DNA of 64,000 nt from Candidatus Woesearchaeota archaeon (GTDB lineage Archaea; Nanobdellota; Nanobdellia; Woesearchaeales; JAFCFN01). Positions 16,697 through 58,032 of this stretch are shown piece after piece. The notes under the pieces are model-generated. The model had not been told where the DNA came from and ran no database searches. It was given only the letters and a program-made list of their open reading frames with translations. Within the stretch, counting starts at the first letter, position 1. Each line of letters opens with the position of its first letter. Made by a program: the position numbers and the translations under genes. Location of the stretch: positions 295-64,294 of the forward strand of contig JAFCFN010000006.1 in assembly GCA_017608625.1 (NCBI GenBank). The letters are read 5' to 3'.

Positions 16697-16786
16697 CGGG
16701 CCTGAGGAGATTCGAACTCCTGACCTTTACCTATCTTCTATTTAAAGTAGGAGGGTACTGCTCTATCCAGACTGAGCTACAGGCCC
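16697..16786 (-). tRNA. tRNA-Arg(CCU) with 15-nt canonical anticodon-loop intron
   Basis: rc gives GGGCCTG-TA-GCTCAGTCTGGATAGAGC-A-GTACC-CTCCTA[intron]A-GGTAA-AGGTC-AGGAGTTCGAATCTCCT-CAGGCCC-G. Confidence 0.7.
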
Positions 16787-17993: not shown

Positions 17994-18078
17994 AGCCTCA
18001 GGAGGGATTTGAACCCTCGACCTGCTGATTTCTAGCAGAGCTACAAGTCAGCTGCTCTGGCCACTGAGCTACTGAGGC
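17994..18078 (-). tRNA. tRNA-Thr(UGU) with ~12-nt anticodon-loop intron
   Basis: rc gives GCCTCAG-TA-GCTCAGTGGCCAGAGC-A-GCTGA-CTTGTA[GCTCTGCTAGAA]A-TCAGC-AGGTC-GAGGGTTCAAATCCCTC-CTGAGGC-T. Confidence 0.75.
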
Positions 18079-21558: not shown

Positions 21559-21936
21559 CTACTTCTTCTTCATAGCATCAAAAGTAGCTGGCAAATCAAT
21601 TATATATTTGCCATCAGCTAGCTTGAAAACCAAAGGTTCTTTTTTGAATAAATGAACTAAATCCAGTTCATACTTTCCTGGTTTAAGGACTCTTATACTC
21701 TCAAAGTCGAGAACAACTGGCTTTTCTTCATGCTCTTCCTTTCCTATTAGATCAAGAACATCCTTCTCTAGTTCTTGTTTTTGCTTTTCTGTTAGATTAA
21801 TAGTTATTTCTTTGGCTTGCTCTAGTTTTTCTTTTTTAATAAAAAAGAAGAGTCTTGATCCGCAAGAACAGCCTTTGAGAATTTCATTAGCTGTATCATC
21901 ATACAACTTTCCGCATCTTACACACTGGTGTGGCAT
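21559..21936 (-). CDS. Zn-ribbon protein (DUF2072-like)
   Basis: N-terminal 'CVRCG...CSCGS' C4 ribbon, 125 aa. Confidence 0.5.
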   Translation of the reverse strand: MPHQCVRCGKLYDDTANEILKGCSCGSRLFFFIKKEKLEQAKEITINLTEKQKQELEKDVLDLIGKEEHEEKPVVLDFESIRVLKPGKYELDLVHLFKKEPLVFKLADGKYIIDLPATFDAMKKK

Positions 21937-22066
21937 AACCGTAGCCGGTTAACGTCTAGGCGATATTCGATTGCTTCGCAATCGAAATCCCCTGGCCTCG
22001 CTTTGACTTGTCTGCGAGCAAGCGAGCAGACTCGCTTGCAAGTCAGCTCGGCTGTTAACCTCCTCC
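21937..22066 (-). ncRNA. GC-rich structured element between GGAGG and ATG (copy 1, ~130 nt)
   Basis: ~60% GC in 30% GC genome; nested hairpins (GACTTG/CAAGTC, CAAGCGAG/CTCGCTTG, TTCGATTGC/GCAATCGAA); flanking GTTAAC palindromes; 3' 27-mer shared with copy at 43643. Confidence 0.5.
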
Positions 22067-22067
22067 A

Positions 22068-32562: not shown

Positions 32563-33849
32563 TTAAACCTTTCTACAAATCTTCTTTAAACCATTCATAT
32601 AGGGTTGTAAAACAGCAGGAATTTTTATTGAGCCGTCTTTTTGTTGATAATTTTCTAAAATAGCTAACATTGCTCTTGAAGTAGCTAGTGCTGTATTATT
32701 CAAAGTGTGAACAAAGCCTTTTGCAGGAAGGCCTTCTTTTTCTCTATACTTAATGTTTAATCTTCTTGCTTGATAATCAGTGCAATTAGAATTAGATCCA
32801 ATCTCTCTATATTTGCCATCTGCCATATAAACCTCTACATCATATTGTTTTGCAGCTCTTTTGCCTACTTCTGCAGAACACATCTCAACAACTCTATATG
32901 GCAGTTTTAGAGCTTTGTAAATATCTTCACAATTTTTTTGCAATTCTTCAAAATATTTCCAGCTGTCTTCTGGTCTGCAGAAAATGAACTGTTCAACTTT
33001 ATTGAATTGGTGCATTCTAAAGAGTCCTTTTGTATATTTACCATGAGAGCCAACTTCTTTTCTAAAACAAGGTGAGAAAGCAACAATCTTTAACGGCAGA
33101 TCTGCTTCATTAAATGTTTCATTCATAAACATTGCTGCAATAGGATGTTCTGCTGTTGCTATTAAGTAAAGATCCTCCCCATCTATTTTGTACATTACCT
33201 CTTCAAAATCCTCTAAAGAAGTGGCGCCTTCGTAGGCTTTTTTGTTCATCATAAAAGGAGGCTCTATTAATCTGTAACCTCTCTTCATAAGAAAATCAAT
33301 TGCAAACCTCTGTAAAGCATGATCTAATAAGGCTAATTCATCTCTCAAATAAACAAAACCTGATCCAGCAACTTTAGCTGCCTTCTGCCTATCAATTAAC
33401 CCTAAATTTTCTGCTAATTCTAGATGATCCTTTGGCTTGAATTTGAACTCAGGTATTTTGCCATCTTTGTATATCACTTTATTATCTGATTCTGATTTGC
33501 CCAAAGGCACGCTTTTATCCAGAATATTTGGAAAGCTTAACAAATAGAATCTGATTTTCTCTTTTAGAAGATTTATCCTTTCTTCTGCTTCTTTGATTTT
33601 TATGGGGAGGTCTTTTGCTTCCTTGATTTTAGCTTTAATATCTTTGCCTTGTTTTTTTAGCTTATTTATCTCCAGTGCAATTATATTTCTTTTGTGTCTT
33701 AAATCTTGAAGCTTTTGTAATAATGCTCTGTATTCTTTGTCTTTTTTAAGAAGATCATCTACCCAGCTTAGTTTTTCTTTTTCCCCTCTTTTTTTGAGGC
33801 TCTCCTTAACTATCCTAGGACTCTGCCTCACCAGGTTGATATCAAGCAT
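32563..33849 (-). CDS. serS: seryl-tRNA synthetase
   Basis: class II motifs; N-terminal coiled-coil arm; start moved to 'MLDINLVRQ'. Confidence 0.85.
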   Translation of the reverse strand: MLDINLVRQSPRIVKESLKKRGEKEKLSWVDDLLKKDKEYRALLQKLQDLRHKRNIIALEINKLKKQGKDIKAKIKEAKDLPIKIKEAEERINLLKEKIRFYLLSFPNILDKSVPLGKSESDNKVIYKDGKIPEFKFKPKDHLELAENLGLIDRQKAAKVAGSGFVYLRDELALLDHALQRFAIDFLMKRGYRLIEPPFMMNKKAYEGATSLEDFEEVMYKIDGEDLYLIATAEHPIAAMFMNETFNEADLPLKIVAFSPCFRKEVGSHGKYTKGLFRMHQFNKVEQFIFCRPEDSWKYFEELQKNCEDIYKALKLPYRVVEMCSAEVGKRAAKQYDVEVYMADGKYREIGSNSNCTDYQARRLNIKYREKEGLPAKGFVHTLNNTALATSRAMLAILENYQQKDGSIKIPAVLQPYMNGLKKICRKV

Positions 33850-34426
33850 ACTGAAATTAAAACAAAGAGAATTTATAAAGCTTTTGGCATCTCCTAAAAA
33901 CAGAGTTTTTGAGGTGATGAGAAATCCGATGTTAAATAAAGTGACCAAGCATTATTTCTGCTAATCCCTGTTATGCGTTTTTTCTGTAAGAAAAAATGCT
34001 GAAGCGAAGCAGAGGCAGTGTGGCGCAGGGCAAAGTTTAATATCTATATGATTCTGGAATAGTATATGGTGGAGAAGGCAGTGGTGATTGCATTGGTTTA
34101 ATAGGATATTTTCTTACTAACTTCATTATCTCTTCAAAATTAGCTAAAGTTTCTTGTGCCTTTTTCCAGCTTTGAGAATCTTTTAATTTTTCTTCTATTG
34201 TTTTCATAAATCCTATTAGACACAGCTAATATAAAAAAATTTTGCCCCAGTAATTTATAATCTAAAAGAGTTATTAATAAAAATCCAAAACCCTGAAACT
34301 GCCAAATTTTGGCTCTAGAAGCCTTCTCCCCTTAAAATTTAATAGAAAACTATTTAAATAAAGCCAGTTTTCTTTTTAATAAAGAAAAGAGCTTTTTCTG
34401 CTCTGATTAAACTAAAAATAGCCTAA

Positions 34427-37861: not shown

Positions 37862-38010
37862 GCGCAGATGGTCTAATGGCATGACAATGGCCTTCCATTT
37901 CGAAAGCAGGCTTGTGTAATGCTCTAAAAAGCTTTGCTTTTCGAAGCAAGCCATTTATCCGGGTTCGAATTAGCAAAGTAAGCTTTGCTTTGAAAGTCCC
38001 GGTCTGCGCA
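37862..38010 (+). tRNA. tRNA-Gly(UCC)-like with two introns (anticodon loop ~51 nt; T-loop ~27 nt)
   Basis: acceptor GCGCAGA/TCTGCGC+A; anticodon stem ATGGC/GCCAT, loop CTTCCA[intron]A; T arm CCGGG-TTCGAA[intron]T-CCCGG. Confidence 0.6.
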
Positions 38011-38313: not shown

Positions 38314-39747
38314 ATGGCAGAAAATATTGAGTTAAAAAAAATTTCTGATGTAATTTGGGAAATACCTAAAACAGGCAATATGAATGTCCCTACAAGAATT
38401 TTTGCTTCTGAAAAATTATTAGAAAAGATGAAGCTGGATAGAACTTTAGAACAAGGGAGAAATGTTGCTTGTTTGCCAGGAATTTACAAACATGCTATTA
38501 TTTTGCCAGATGGTCATGAGGGATATGGATTTCCTATTGGAGGAGTTGCTGCACTAGATTATGAAAAAGGAGGAATATCTCCAGGCGGTATTGGTTATGA
38601 TATTAATTGTGGTATGAGACTATTAAGAACTAATCTTAAAAAAGAGGATATTTATCCCAGGATTAAAGAACTGTTAGAGAGCTTGTTTCAGCATGTTCCT
38701 GCAGGATTAGGTAGCTCAAATATCAGAGTTACAAAAGATGTATTGCTTGGTGTTCTTAATAAAGGAGCTAAATGGGCTGTTGAAAATGGTTATGGTAATG
38801 AGGATGATCTAGAATTTTGTGAGGAAAATGGGAGTATGTCAACTGCTGATGCATCAGCTGTTTCTGAAAAAGCCAAAAGCAGAGGACTTAAACAGCTTGC
38901 TACTCTTGGTAGTGGAAACCATTTTCTTGAGGTTCAGTATGTTGATAAAATATTTGATAAAGAAGTAGCAAAGGTTTTTGGAATAAAAGAGGAAGGACAA
39001 GTAACTTTAATGATCCATTGTGGAAGCAGAGGCTTAGGACATCAGGTTTGCTCAGATTATTTAAGAGAAATGGAAAGAAGATTGCCTGAAATTGTTGCTA
39101 AAATACCTGACAAAGAGCTAATTTATGCGCCTTCTGGGCATGAACTTTGTGAAAAATATCTAAAAGCAATGTCAGCTGCTGCTAATTTTGCATGGTGCAA
39201 TAGACATATTATTGGTCATCAGTGTAGACTAGCTTTTTCAAATATTTTTTCTGATGTAAAACTTGAAACTGTTTATGATGTTGCTCATAATATTGCAAAA
39301 ATAGAAGAACATAAGATAGATGGAGAAGTTAAAAAAGTGTTTATGCATAGAAAAGGAGGAACAAGGGCATTTGGTCCTGGAGGAAAAGAAATTCCTGAAA
39401 AATATAGAGATGTTGGCCAGCCGATTATTATTCCTGGCTCTATGGGAACTGCCTCTTATGTTTTAGTTGGTACAAAAGAAGGAATGGAGATCAGTTTTGG
39501 TAGTACAGCTCATGGTGCTGGAAGAACAATGTCAAGACATCAAGCACTAAAGCAATACAGAGGAGAGAAATTAAAAAGAGAATTAGAGGAAAGAAAAATT
39601 TTTGTTAGATCTGCTTCTTGGAAAGGTATTGCAGAAGAAGCTCCTGGTGCTTATAAGGATATTGAAGAGGTTGTTGATGTAAGCCATAAAGCAAATATTG
39701 GTAAAAAGGTAGTTAGATTAAAGCCAATAGGTGTTATTAAAGGATGA
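38314..39747 (+). CDS. rtcB: RNA-splicing ligase RtcB
   Basis: 'GYDINCGMRLL', 'GSGNHFLEVQ', 'HCGSRGLGHQ', 'AHGAGR' motifs. Confidence 0.9.
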   Translation: MAENIELKKISDVIWEIPKTGNMNVPTRIFASEKLLEKMKLDRTLEQGRNVACLPGIYKHAIILPDGHEGYGFPIGGVAALDYEKGGISPGGIGYDINCGMRLLRTNLKKEDIYPRIKELLESLFQHVPAGLGSSNIRVTKDVLLGVLNKGAKWAVENGYGNEDDLEFCEENGSMSTADASAVSEKAKSRGLKQLATLGSGNHFLEVQYVDKIFDKEVAKVFGIKEEGQVTLMIHCGSRGLGHQVCSDYLREMERRLPEIVAKIPDKELIYAPSGHELCEKYLKAMSAAANFAWCNRHIIGHQCRLAFSNIFSDVKLETVYDVAHNIAKIEEHKIDGEVKKVFMHRKGGTRAFGPGGKEIPEKYRDVGQPIIIPGSMGTASYVLVGTKEGMEISFGSTAHGAGRTMSRHQALKQYRGEKLKRELEERKIFVRSASWKGIAEEAPGAYKDIEEVVDVSHKANIGKKVVRLKPIGVIKG

Positions 39748-40157
39748 AACCTTATGAATTTTTAGAGCATACAGCTGATGCAAAATTTAGAGCTTATGGC
39801 AAAACTTTAGAGGAAGCATTTCAGAATGCAGCTTATGCTATGACAGATGTTATAACTGATCATACAAAAATCAAGCCTGTTATAGAGAAAACAATTTCTG
39901 TAGAATCAGAAAATAAAGAAGCATTGCTTTATGATTTTTTAGAGCAGTTTCTTATTCTGCTTGACAGCGAGGGTTTTATATTGAACAAAATAGAGGAGGT
40001 AAAGATGCAAAATAATAAAATTACAGCAAAAATTATTGGGGACAACCATCCAGAAGAATATAATATAGAAACTCACATTAAAGCAGTTACTTATGAAGAG
40101 ATGTTTATTAAAAAAGAAAAAGATCAGTGGATTGTGCAGGTTATTGTTGATATTTAG
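39744..40157 (+). CDS. archease
   Basis: 'YEFLEHTADAKFRAYGKTLEEAF' archease N-terminus; overlaps rtcB stop. Confidence 0.8.
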   Translation: MKPYEFLEHTADAKFRAYGKTLEEAFQNAAYAMTDVITDHTKIKPVIEKTISVESENKEALLYDFLEQFLILLDSEGFILNKIEEVKMQNNKITAKIIGDNHPEEYNIETHIKAVTYEEMFIKKEKDQWIVQVIVDI

Positions 40158-43642: not shown

Positions 43643-43723
43643 AACCGTAGCCAGTTAACGTCTAAGGGAGATGCGCTCGCAACAGAGTTGCTCGTTTAGT
43701 CCCCCTGGTTAACCTTTACCTCC
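43643..43723 (-). ncRNA. GC-rich structured element between GGAGG and smc ATG (copy 2, ~80 nt)
   Basis: shares 27-nt 3' segment and flanking GTTAAC with copy 1; GGGGGA/UCUCCC stem enclosing GCAAC-UCU-GUUGC hairpin. Confidence 0.5.
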
Positions 43724-43896
43724 ATTTCTTTTAGTCTGTCCATAAGTGTTAAAGAAGCATTTAGTGTGTTTATTTCATTTATATCTATTTTGTATTTTCC
43801 ATAATCTAGTCTAGCTTTACACCTAGGGCATACTTTTGGCAGTTTTTCATCCCTTGTCAGCCAACTATACTGGCATTTTTTACATTTTATTAACAT
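43696..43896 (-). CDS. Zn-ribbon small protein; C-terminal codons read from the GC-rich element
   Basis: 'CKKCQY...CPRCKARL'; last 9 codons (MEVKVNQGD) lie in element copy 2. Confidence 0.35.
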   Translation of the reverse strand: MLIKCKKCQYSWLTRDEKLPKVCPRCKARLDYGKYKIDINEINTLNASLTLMDRLKEMEVKVNQGD

Positions 43897-48825: not shown

Positions 48826-49024
48826 GCCGCCGTGGCACAACCTGGTATCACTAAATGTGACAGGAAACTGCGCGGGATTGCTATGAGAAATTGTCTATTC
48901 TCACTAAGATCCCGTTCCCTTCGGGGTATCTGGGTTCAAAAAAGTGAAGTGTAGACAGAGGGGCAGTTACTACAGAGCTGCTTGCTTTGTTTACATCCGG
49001 CTTTTGAAAGTCCCAGCGGCGGCG
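48826..49024 (+). tRNA. tRNA-Ser(GCU)-like, probably three introns (D-loop ~17 nt, anticodon loop ~25 nt, T-loop ~70 nt)
   Basis: acceptor GCCGCCG/CGGCGGC+G; anticodon stem CGGGA/TCCCG with loop TTGCTA[intron]A; variable hairpin TCCC-TTCG-GGGG; T arm CTGGG-TTCAAA[intron]T-CCCAG; exon sum ~87 nt. Confidence 0.5.
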
Positions 49025-49070
49025 TTTATTTTAGTAACTTTTATAAACAATCTTTAATCTAATTCTATTT

Positions 49071-57089: not shown

Positions 57090-57232
57090 CTCTTTTTATT
57101 GTTTATGAATATAATATAGGTTTAAAATAGTAATGCTATTTATAAATGTTTTGGTTAATATAAAGATAAAATCAGTTCTGCAAGAGTGATAAAATATCAG
57201 AAAGCTTTATAAAAATAAAAAGTGTAAAATTA

Positions 57233-57288
57233 TACAGGAGGGGGCTGTGAGCAAACAATATACAGGAGGGGGCTGTGAGCAAACAATA
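57233..57288. repeat. perfect 28-bp tandem duplication (tacaggagggggctgtgagcaaacaata x2)
   Basis: seen in sequence; overlaps predicted start of downstream ORF. Confidence 0.9.
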
Positions 57289-58032
57289 GATGTTCTAGTT
57301 GAGTTTATAAAATCAAATGCATTAGAAAATAACAATGGAAGTCAAAATGAAAATGCATCTGAAAGCATCAATATAACTGATATTTCACATCCAGATCAAA
57401 ACCTAACAATTAATGAAGGAGAAGATTTAGTAATAATTGTGAACTTTTCTAGAGTAACTGATTATAGCTGGATTATTAATAATCAAACAGTTGTATCTGG
57501 AACAGGAGATTCAGCAAGCTATAATTTTAGTGCAGATTTTAGTTCATCTGGCAATTACACTTTAAGATTAATAGCTGGAAATTTAACAAGAGAGTGGAAC
57601 ATTACAGTCAAAGAAGCAGGTGATCTAGTATTTGAGTTTAGAACAGCTGTTCTTGATTATAATACAGAGGCGTATATACCTAATAATACAGTGACAATCA
57701 ACGGAGTAACAAAACAAAACCCTAATCGTTCTTCTCATTACAAAACAATATTCAATGTCAGCTCTGATACTTTAACTGAAACTTGTTATTCAGCTGACAA
57801 TTATTTGCCAGATTGTGATGATGTTTATTTTGATATGAGACTAACAACTTGTACAGCAGGAAGTGATTGTAATTTAGGAACTAATAAAGGGGGCTACACA
57901 ACTAATTGTGTATGGAACAGTGATTGGGGTGATTTTACATGCACAGTTACAAAAGCAGATTACAAATCTGTTTTTATCTATAATCCTAATCAAAATGCTG
58001 TAAAAAGGGTTAATTACTTGGAGAAGAAATAA
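57247..58032 (+). CDS. Asn/Thr-rich putative surface glycoprotein (many NxS/T sequons), start uncertain
   Basis: >15 N-x-S/T sequons, Cys-rich C-terminus; no signal peptide at predicted start. Confidence 0.35.
   Translation: MSKQYTGGGCEQTIDVLVEFIKSNALENNNGSQNENASESINITDISHPDQNLTINEGEDLVIIVNFSRVTDYSWIINNQTVVSGTGDSASYNFSADFSSSGNYTLRLIAGNLTREWNITVKEAGDLVFEFRTAVLDYNTEAYIPNNTVTINGVTKQNPNRSSHYKTIFNVSSDTLTETCYSADNYLPDCDDVYFDMRLTTCTAGSDCNLGTNKGGYTTNCVWNSDWGDFTCTVTKADYKSVFIYNPNQNAVKRVNYLEKK

Follow-up and report, generated by a model that had tools for sequence, protein, structure and literature searches.

Positions 48826-49024 on the plus strand of the window, by which we mean the whole 64,000-nt stretch of DNA that was analysed, raise the question of whether a segment of 199 nt can be a tRNA-Ser gene interrupted in the D-loop, the anticodon loop and the T-loop, as an earlier note had proposed, and whether a gene so interrupted can still give a working tRNA. 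The window is archaeal DNA with 31% GC, and its host lineage is Woesearchaeota-like, within the DPANN. Comparison with orthologues, together with the geometry of the inserts, indicates that the segment is very probably a functional gene for tRNA-Ser(GCU), predicted to carry three protein-spliced introns of the bulge-helix-bulge (BHB) type.

The gene is colinear and consists of four exons (21 + 17 + 32 + 14 = 84 nt, including G73) separated by introns of 20 nt (between tRNA positions 20 and 21, or 20/21), 25 nt (37/38) and 70 nt (59/60), with the exact exon-intron junctions set by orthology (Table 1). As the four exons lie in order within 199 nt, a split or permuted tRNA gene is ruled out. The junction of intron 1 may be shifted one base to the right equally well, because an A is repeated there. 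Joining the exons restores a canonical class II tRNA, with acceptor stem GCCGCCG/CGGCGGC, a 3-bp D stem (GCA/UGC), anticodon stem CGGGA/UCCCG and T stem CUGGG/CCCAG, and all 23 of the 23 cloverleaf pairs are standard in the spliced sequence of the window. The conserved bases U8, A14, G18, G19, A21, U33, G53, U54, U55, C56 and A58 are in place in the joined exons, and the anticodon loop (UUGCUA...A) is interrupted by intron 2. Identity as tRNA-Ser is conferred by a long variable arm, the discriminator base G73 and a serine anticodon, and the gene has a variable arm UU-CCC-UUCG-GGG-UAU, G73 at position 49024 and the anticodon GCU with A37. The acceptor stem, T stem, variable hairpin, anticodon stem and GCU anticodon are thus where the earlier note had placed them, and its lengths of ~25 and ~70 nt for the anticodon and T-loop inserts agree with the measured 25 and 70 nt; the D-loop insert, put at ~17 nt, is 20 nt long. 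Its exon total of ~87 nt is reached only once CCA has been added, since CCA is not encoded and the exons themselves sum to 84 nt.

Upstream of the gene, the TATA-box-like element is a putative promoter: a TTTAAAAA(AA) box also stands 22-24 nt 5' of the L106 and L108 orthologues, with just 55% identity in the remainder of the 40-nt upstream region. The T-rich tract that follows the gene directly is likely to act as an archaeal transcription stop, and T-rich tracts are likewise found 3' of the orthologous tRNA-Ser(GCU) genes.

Table 1. Features of the window discussed in the text, with positions counted from its first nucleotide.
Feature	Coordinates	Strand	Description
TATA-box-like element TTTAAAAAAA	48793-48802	+	putative promoter element; 23 to ~28 nt 5' of the mature end
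tRNA-Ser(GCU) exon 1 GCCGCCGTGGCACAACCTGGT	48826-48846	+	21 nt; acceptor 5' strand, U8 G9, D-stem 5' strand, D-loop to U20
Intron 1 ATCACTAAATGTGACAGGAA	48847-48866	+	20 nt; D-loop, 20/21
Exon 2 ACTGCGCGGGATTGCTA	48867-48883	+	17 nt, A21-A37; D-stem 3' strand, anticodon-stem 5' strand, GCU
Intron 2 TGAGAAATTGTCTATTCTCACTAAG	48884-48908	+	25 nt; anticodon loop, canonical 37/38
Exon 3	48909-48940	+	32 nt, A38-A59; anticodon-stem 3' strand, variable arm CCC-UUCG-GGG, T-stem 5' strand, T-loop UUCAAA
Intron 3	48941-49010	+	70 nt; T-loop, 59/60; long hairpin fold
Exon 4	49011-49024	+	14 nt, U60-G73; T-stem 3' strand, acceptor 3' strand, discriminator G73
T-rich tract TTTATTTT	49025-49032	+	putative transcription stop, directly 3' of tRNA-Ser(GCU)
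tRNA-Gly(UCC)	37862-38010	+	two introns; missed by ARAGORN and Rfam
tRNA-Gly(UCC) 37/38 intron	37898-37948		51 nt; strict BHB, CTTC/GAAG
tRNA-Gly(UCC) 59/60 intron	37970-37996		27 nt; TTCG/TGAA
12-mer AAGCTTTGCTTT	37929-37940; 37980-37991		one copy in each tRNA-Gly(UCC) intron
tRNA-Arg(CCU)	16697-16786	-	15-nt 37/38 intron; Rfam register; labelled tRNA-Gly(ccc) by ARAGORN
tRNA-Thr(UGU)	17994-18078	-	12-nt intron; labelled '???(tgta)' by ARAGORN
RtcB tRNA-splicing ligase	38314-39747	+	Pfam PF01139, E = 3e-171
Archease, RtcB activator	39744-40157	+	Pfam PF01951, E = 8.1e-42; overlaps the RtcB stop codon
Seryl-tRNA synthetase (SerRS)	32563-33948	-	Pfam Seryl_tRNA_N and tRNA-synt_2b
GC-rich structured element	43643-43725; 21937-22067	-	two copies
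Zinc-ribbon-like ORF	21559-21936		
Tandem duplication of ATACAGGAGGGGGCTGTGAGCAAACAAT	57230-57290	+	just 5' of ORF 57247-58032

In a scan of one genome per species with the 21-mer of exon 1, we identified 22 loci, of which 20 were archaeal Ser tRNA genes (labelled Woesearchaeota, Nanoarchaeota, Methanosarcinales and, in one case, plain 'archaeon') and two, L001 and L020, were bacterial and were set aside as chance matches. The intronless tRNA-Ser(GCU) of L021, a Woesearchaeota MAG, is identical to the joined exons at 82 of 84 positions (97.6%); the two that differ are the partners of a single compensatory pair within the variable arm. A metagenome scan with the 17-mer of exon 2 returned ~40 distinct orthologous Ser(GCU) genes, mostly intronless, some with an intron at the matching site in the D-loop, the anticodon loop or the T-loop. 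Alignment with MAFFT places gaps exactly at 48847-48866, 48884-48908 and 48941-49010: intron 1 is missing from L021, L108 and most orthologues, intron 2 from L021 and from the syntenic L106 and L108, and intron 3 from L021 and L108. Since the joined exons are canonical and the orthologue gaps coincide with the junctions, the three-intron tRNA-Ser(GCU) of the earlier note is borne out.

Syntenic contigs, which we reached through homologues of RtcB, S3Ae and the transglutaminase, share the order transglutaminase / tRNA-Ser / initiator tRNA-Met. The contig from the same species (L110, transglutaminase 98% identical) carries an identical three-intron tRNA-Ser(GCU), and because L110 belongs to an independent metagenome assembly, the three-intron gene is not an assembly artefact. 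In L106, of which the RtcB is 86% identical to that of the window, the Ser(GCU) gene 5' of the initiator tRNA-Met is interrupted by introns in the D-loop (32 nt) and the T-loop (62 nt) but not in the anticodon loop, and its acceptor stem (GTCGCGA/TCGCGAC) differs from that of the window in three pairs, with both sides changed in each. L108 and L111 have an intronless Ser(GCU) at the syntenic position between the transglutaminase gene and the initiator tRNA-Met. The 42 spliced orthologues have 100% pairing in the cloverleaf, and double-sided changes occur at 14 of the 23 pairs, counts to be read with the reservation that the parser demanded perfect acceptor and T stems, so that helices 1 and 5 were pre-selected for pairing.

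In the canonical BHB register, each strand contributes four nucleotides to the central helix and then a 3-nt bulge, and the cut falls after the second bulge nucleotide. This register fits the two introns of the tRNA-Gly(UCC) in the window, where the junctions are fixed by an intronless orthologue. The T-loop intron of tRNA-Ser(GCU) forms a strict 3-4-3 hBHBh' motif, with the 5-bp T stem as outer helix, a fully paired central helix (UUCA/UGAA, 4/4), AA↓A and AG↓U bulges (the arrow marks the cut) and at least 3 pairs in the inner helix; in an unbiased scan for BHB motifs it was the top match. The proposal that the end of this intron, CTTTTGAAAG↓T, pairs with the exon therefore stands, as TGAA faces the exonic TTCA in the BHB helix. 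Of the ten T-loop introns that we tabulated, seven end in TGAA followed by AG↓T and the others in TGAA followed by AA, TGAC followed by TG, and TGAT followed by AG; a TGAN central strand and a 2-nt bulge are present in all ten. The D-loop intron pairs CCUG with CAGG in its central helix (4/4) and UCAC with GUGA in its inner helix, the bulges being GU↓A and AA↓A, and its BHB belongs to the relaxed class because the outer helix, the D stem, is broken by a 3x1 internal loop. Six of the seven tabulated Ser D-loop introns (that of the window included) end in CAGG followed by AA↓A, and the seventh, from L118, ends in TAAC followed by CA with a central helix of 2/4. The intron interiors are unrelated in both tabulated sets. 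By itself a BHB motif proves little, because loose BHB-like motifs are present in ~68% of random 199-nt segments from the same genome, and for this reason the motif count was dropped as a test of significance.

The anticodon intron is the weakest point of the model, with residual doubt over the efficiency and precision of its removal. Folding each junction as a BHB, a check suggested in the earlier note, gives the strict form for the T-loop and the relaxed form for the D-loop, but at the anticodon the spacing fits while the central helix is weak. The locus could accordingly be read as a real tRNA-Ser(GCU) gene with working D- and T-loop introns, in which the 25-nt anticodon insert is recent and poorly spliceable; its excision may be inefficient or use a shifted site, or the insert may cripple this copy. 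We regard this reading as improbable. In its favour, the insert is missing from the syntenic L106 and L108, and just two of the four positions pair in its central helix (TTGC/ACTA, 2/4), compared to 3-4/4 in seven orthologous anticodon introns of Ser(GCU) genes. The minimum-energy fold of the intron (-15.8 kcal/mol) buries the 3' splice site in a helix, and the BHB-compatible fold (-10.4 to -4.8 kcal/mol) is 5-11 kcal/mol less stable. Conversely, the spacing of exactly 4 + 3 nt on both strands is that of the BHB register, the inner helix (GAGAA/TTCTC) has 5 bp, the outer helix fits as well, and the exon ends rejoin into the invariant UUGCUAA loop. The insert is identical in the independent assembly of the same species, and two other canonical introns of the window, in tRNA-Arg(CCU) and tRNA-Thr(UGU), are also mismatched, with a central helix of 3/4 in each. 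Codon usage speaks against a crippled copy: AGY codons are common (85 of the 256 Ser codons in eight long ORFs), which means that the host needs a tRNA-Ser(GCU), and we saw no second Ser(GCU) gene in the 64 kb.

The tRNA finders did not report the gene. ARAGORN called three other tRNAs within the window but did not call tRNA-Ser(GCU), either on the window or on the region with intron options and a lowered threshold, so that the ARAGORN check suggested in the earlier note, intron mode included, failed to recover it from genomic sequence. In Rfam, 48826-49024 gave no match to RF00005, either at the gathering threshold (bit score 29) or at E <= 10; formally this is the missing covariance hit that the earlier note would have counted against a tRNA. 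Such a miss is expected, because the model cannot bridge three inserts of 20-70 nt, and is uninformative: both programs also missed the two-intron tRNA-Gly(UCC), of which the intronless orthologue is called normally. The result bears on detection and not on tRNA identity. When the exons are joined, ARAGORN reports tRNA-Ser(gct) with stems of 7/3/5/3/5 bp (the call is 85 nt long, that is, the 84-nt exon sum and one flanking T). In trial splicings with variant boundaries, ARAGORN gave a tRNA in 500 of 500 cases, and all variants that keep GCU were tRNA-Ser. Shifted splicing yields the anticodons Leu-UAA, Phe-GAA and Cys-GCA, all accepted by ARAGORN; we rejected them, as the orthologues all read UUGCUAA and the gene has G73 as its discriminator.

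The failure of the tRNA finders and Rfam to call the gene would also fit a tRNA pseudogene in decay, where three insertions have built up and processing to a functional tRNA has ceased, a possibility to which we assign very little weight. Once spliced, all stems and conserved bases are intact, and every insert lies in BHB register; the TATA box and T-tract are conserved. L106 retains the T-loop intron and its motif while its acceptor has undergone the three compensatory pair changes, and introns at the same positions recur across many Ser, Gly and initiator Met genes of the same lineage.

[quoted passage not shown] Although so stable a fold could belong to another structured ncRNA of ~200 nt that is merely tRNA-like, this is extremely improbable, as at E <= 10 the region has only chance, microRNA-like matches in Rfam, and no other RNA would be expected to match intronless tRNA-Ser genes in its exons alone, with clean gaps where the junctions lie.

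Returning to the three-intron tRNA-Ser(GCU) gene, the window also encodes proteins that could process and charge its product. The nearest homologues of the RtcB ligase come from Woesearchaeota, Pacearchaeota and Nanoarchaeota, and the arrangement of RtcB with archease is syntenic in L106. The RtcB of L108 (L108:1-1790) contains an intein with a LAGLIDADG domain in a product of 955 aa; that of the window has no intein. A Pfam scan of 59 ORFs (54 of the 56 ORFs of at least 150 aa, with TreT, archease and an overlapping Bud32-like kinase), covering 64 kb of the genome, found no EndA domain. An exact-protein lookup of the MscS of the window matched no record.

We infer transcription of the gene, cleavage and ligation of its precursor, and the type of EndA involved. 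[quoted passage not shown] At each junction an archaeal EndA would cut the 3-nt bulges flanking the 4-bp helix; RtcB and archease would join the four exons, the introns probably being circularised. RNase P, RNase Z and the CCA-adding enzyme would finish the ends, and SerRS would charge the 84+3-nt product by way of the long variable arm and G73, for the reading of AGY codons.

Among the introns of the gene, that of the T-loop has a homologue at the same site in L106, where 51 of 62 ungapped positions are identical (70 alignment columns). In this comparison of L106 with the window, the exons are 81% identical, a level that the T-loop intron roughly matches, whereas identity is 25% in the D-loop intron and 55% in the upstream spacer. 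The T-loop intron could therefore yield a stable RNA with a function of its own; as this is a single comparison, its conservation could also mean just recent shared ancestry. A box C/D guide RNA was rejected by inspection, which found neither a C box (RUGAUGA) nor a D box (CUGA) in the 70-nt intron. Neither a donor copy of the anticodon intron nor copies of the T-loop intron beyond its orthologues were found in the window or the fetched loci.

The two tRNA-Gly(UCC) introns share an exact 12-mer, AAGCTTTGCTTT, of which these are the only exact copies in the 64 kb, and the 13-mer AAGCTTTGCTTTG recurs in the tRNA-Ser of L106, within its T-loop intron (L106:17164-17176). The 12-13-mer shared by Gly and Ser introns could be left over from duplication or transposition of an intron. 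We think it unlikely that the T-loop intron persists as a stable, possibly circular, functional RNA and/or that the series of zero, two and three introns, together with the shared 12-13-mer, records very recent gain by transposition, in a DPANN lineage for which an EndA of the alpha4 type has been suggested. In five Ser(GCU) loci (L049, L073, L082, L097 and L099) a second copy of the T-stem 3' and acceptor 3' strands lies ~20-60 nt 3' of the gene. These genes are intronless except that of L099, which has a 28-nt anticodon intron, and the spacer can pair with the 3' end of the tRNA. The duplicated ends might be scars of integration at an att site or traces of intron formation.

The tRNA-Gly(UCC) gene lies directly 5' of the RtcB-archease operon, and its joined exons equal the intronless tRNA-Gly(UCC) at L106:6023-6093 save for 1 nt. 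Among distant Woesearchaeota, the initiator tRNA-Met has three inserts in L118 and two in L119, a 59/60 intron of 114 nt interrupts the Ser(GCU) of L113, and that of L118 has introns in the D-loop and the anticodon stem (disrupted loci L118:2088-2248 (-), L119:2158-2272 (-), L113:2233-2430 (+) and L118:2342-2474 (+)). With initiator Met and Ser(GCU) genes disrupted in L113, L118 and L119, heavy tRNA disruption therefore looks lineage-wide. Elsewhere in the window, both copies of a GC-rich structured element end in ...CYTAGACGTTAACYGGCTACGGTT just before an ATG, which is the SMC start in one copy and belongs to the zinc-ribbon-like ORF in the other. The element has no Rfam match and is missing at the SMC junction of L106, though present in the same-species L110. 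The tandem duplication of ATACAGGAGGGGGCTGTGAGCAAACAAT is a further side observation (Table 1).

Interrupted tRNA genes of Archaea have one to at most three introns, which occupy both canonical and non-canonical positions (PMC3239211, PMC4033280), and multi-intron tRNAs, including those with 59/60 introns, have already been described, DPANN included, so that the present gene is another case. The multi-intron tRNAs of Thermoproteales (Sugahara et al. 2008; Fujishima et al. 2010, reviewed in PMC4033280) likewise have up to three BHB introns, which are gained and lost among close relatives and have similar sequences in different tRNAs. Thermoproteales, however, are hyperthermophilic Crenarchaeota with an (alpha-beta)2 EndA, whereas the window comes from a Woesearchaeota-like DPANN archaeon with 31% GC, and the evidence of intron transposition here is just the shared 12-13-mer. 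Closer in lineage, the pre-tRNA-Cys(GCA) and pre-tRNA-Pro(GGG) of ARMAN-2 (Micrarchaeota, also DPANN) have 59/60 T-loop introns too (PMC3239211), and the endonuclease of this archaeon cut a 59/60 intron in vitro (PMC3239211). In ARMAN-2 the Cys intron measures 13 nt, with a relaxed hBH motif and an epsilon2 enzyme, compared to 70 nt and a strict hBHBh' in the window. The pre-tRNA-Glu(UUC) of Methanopyrus kandleri has a D-loop intron of the likewise relaxed HBh' form, with exon 2 starting from A21, and a 37/38 intron (PMC5829648), but it is a class I tRNA of a euryarchaeon with two introns, not three. In a eukaryotic nuclear tRNA gene introns are likewise spread over three arms, although recognition by the splicing enzyme differs and there is no homology. 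The box C/D intron of euryarchaeal tRNA-Trp is also longer than 60 nt, structured and kept between relatives, but it sits at 37/38 and carries C/D boxes, whereas that of the window lies in the T-loop and has none.

A survey that included one Woesearchaeota and one Pacearchaeota genome linked the L3-loop EndAs of DPANN to more tRNA disruption, suggested an alpha4-type EndA with an L3 loop for Woesearchaeota and Pacearchaeota, and took the incomplete predicted tRNA sets of DPANN to imply undetected disrupted genes (PMC5829648). The current understanding of archaeal tRNA splicing is left unchanged by the tRNA-Ser(GCU) gene. What our findings add is a three-intron tRNA-Ser and a two-intron tRNA-Gly in a Woesearchaeota-like genome, both invisible to ARAGORN and Rfam, and these hidden genes illustrate why DPANN tRNA sets look incomplete (PMC5829648). 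The locus also supplies strict and relaxed BHB substrates for tests of the specificity of DPANN splicing endonucleases, and its series of zero, two and three introns at one syntenic position is useful for the study of intron gain and loss in archaeal tRNAs.
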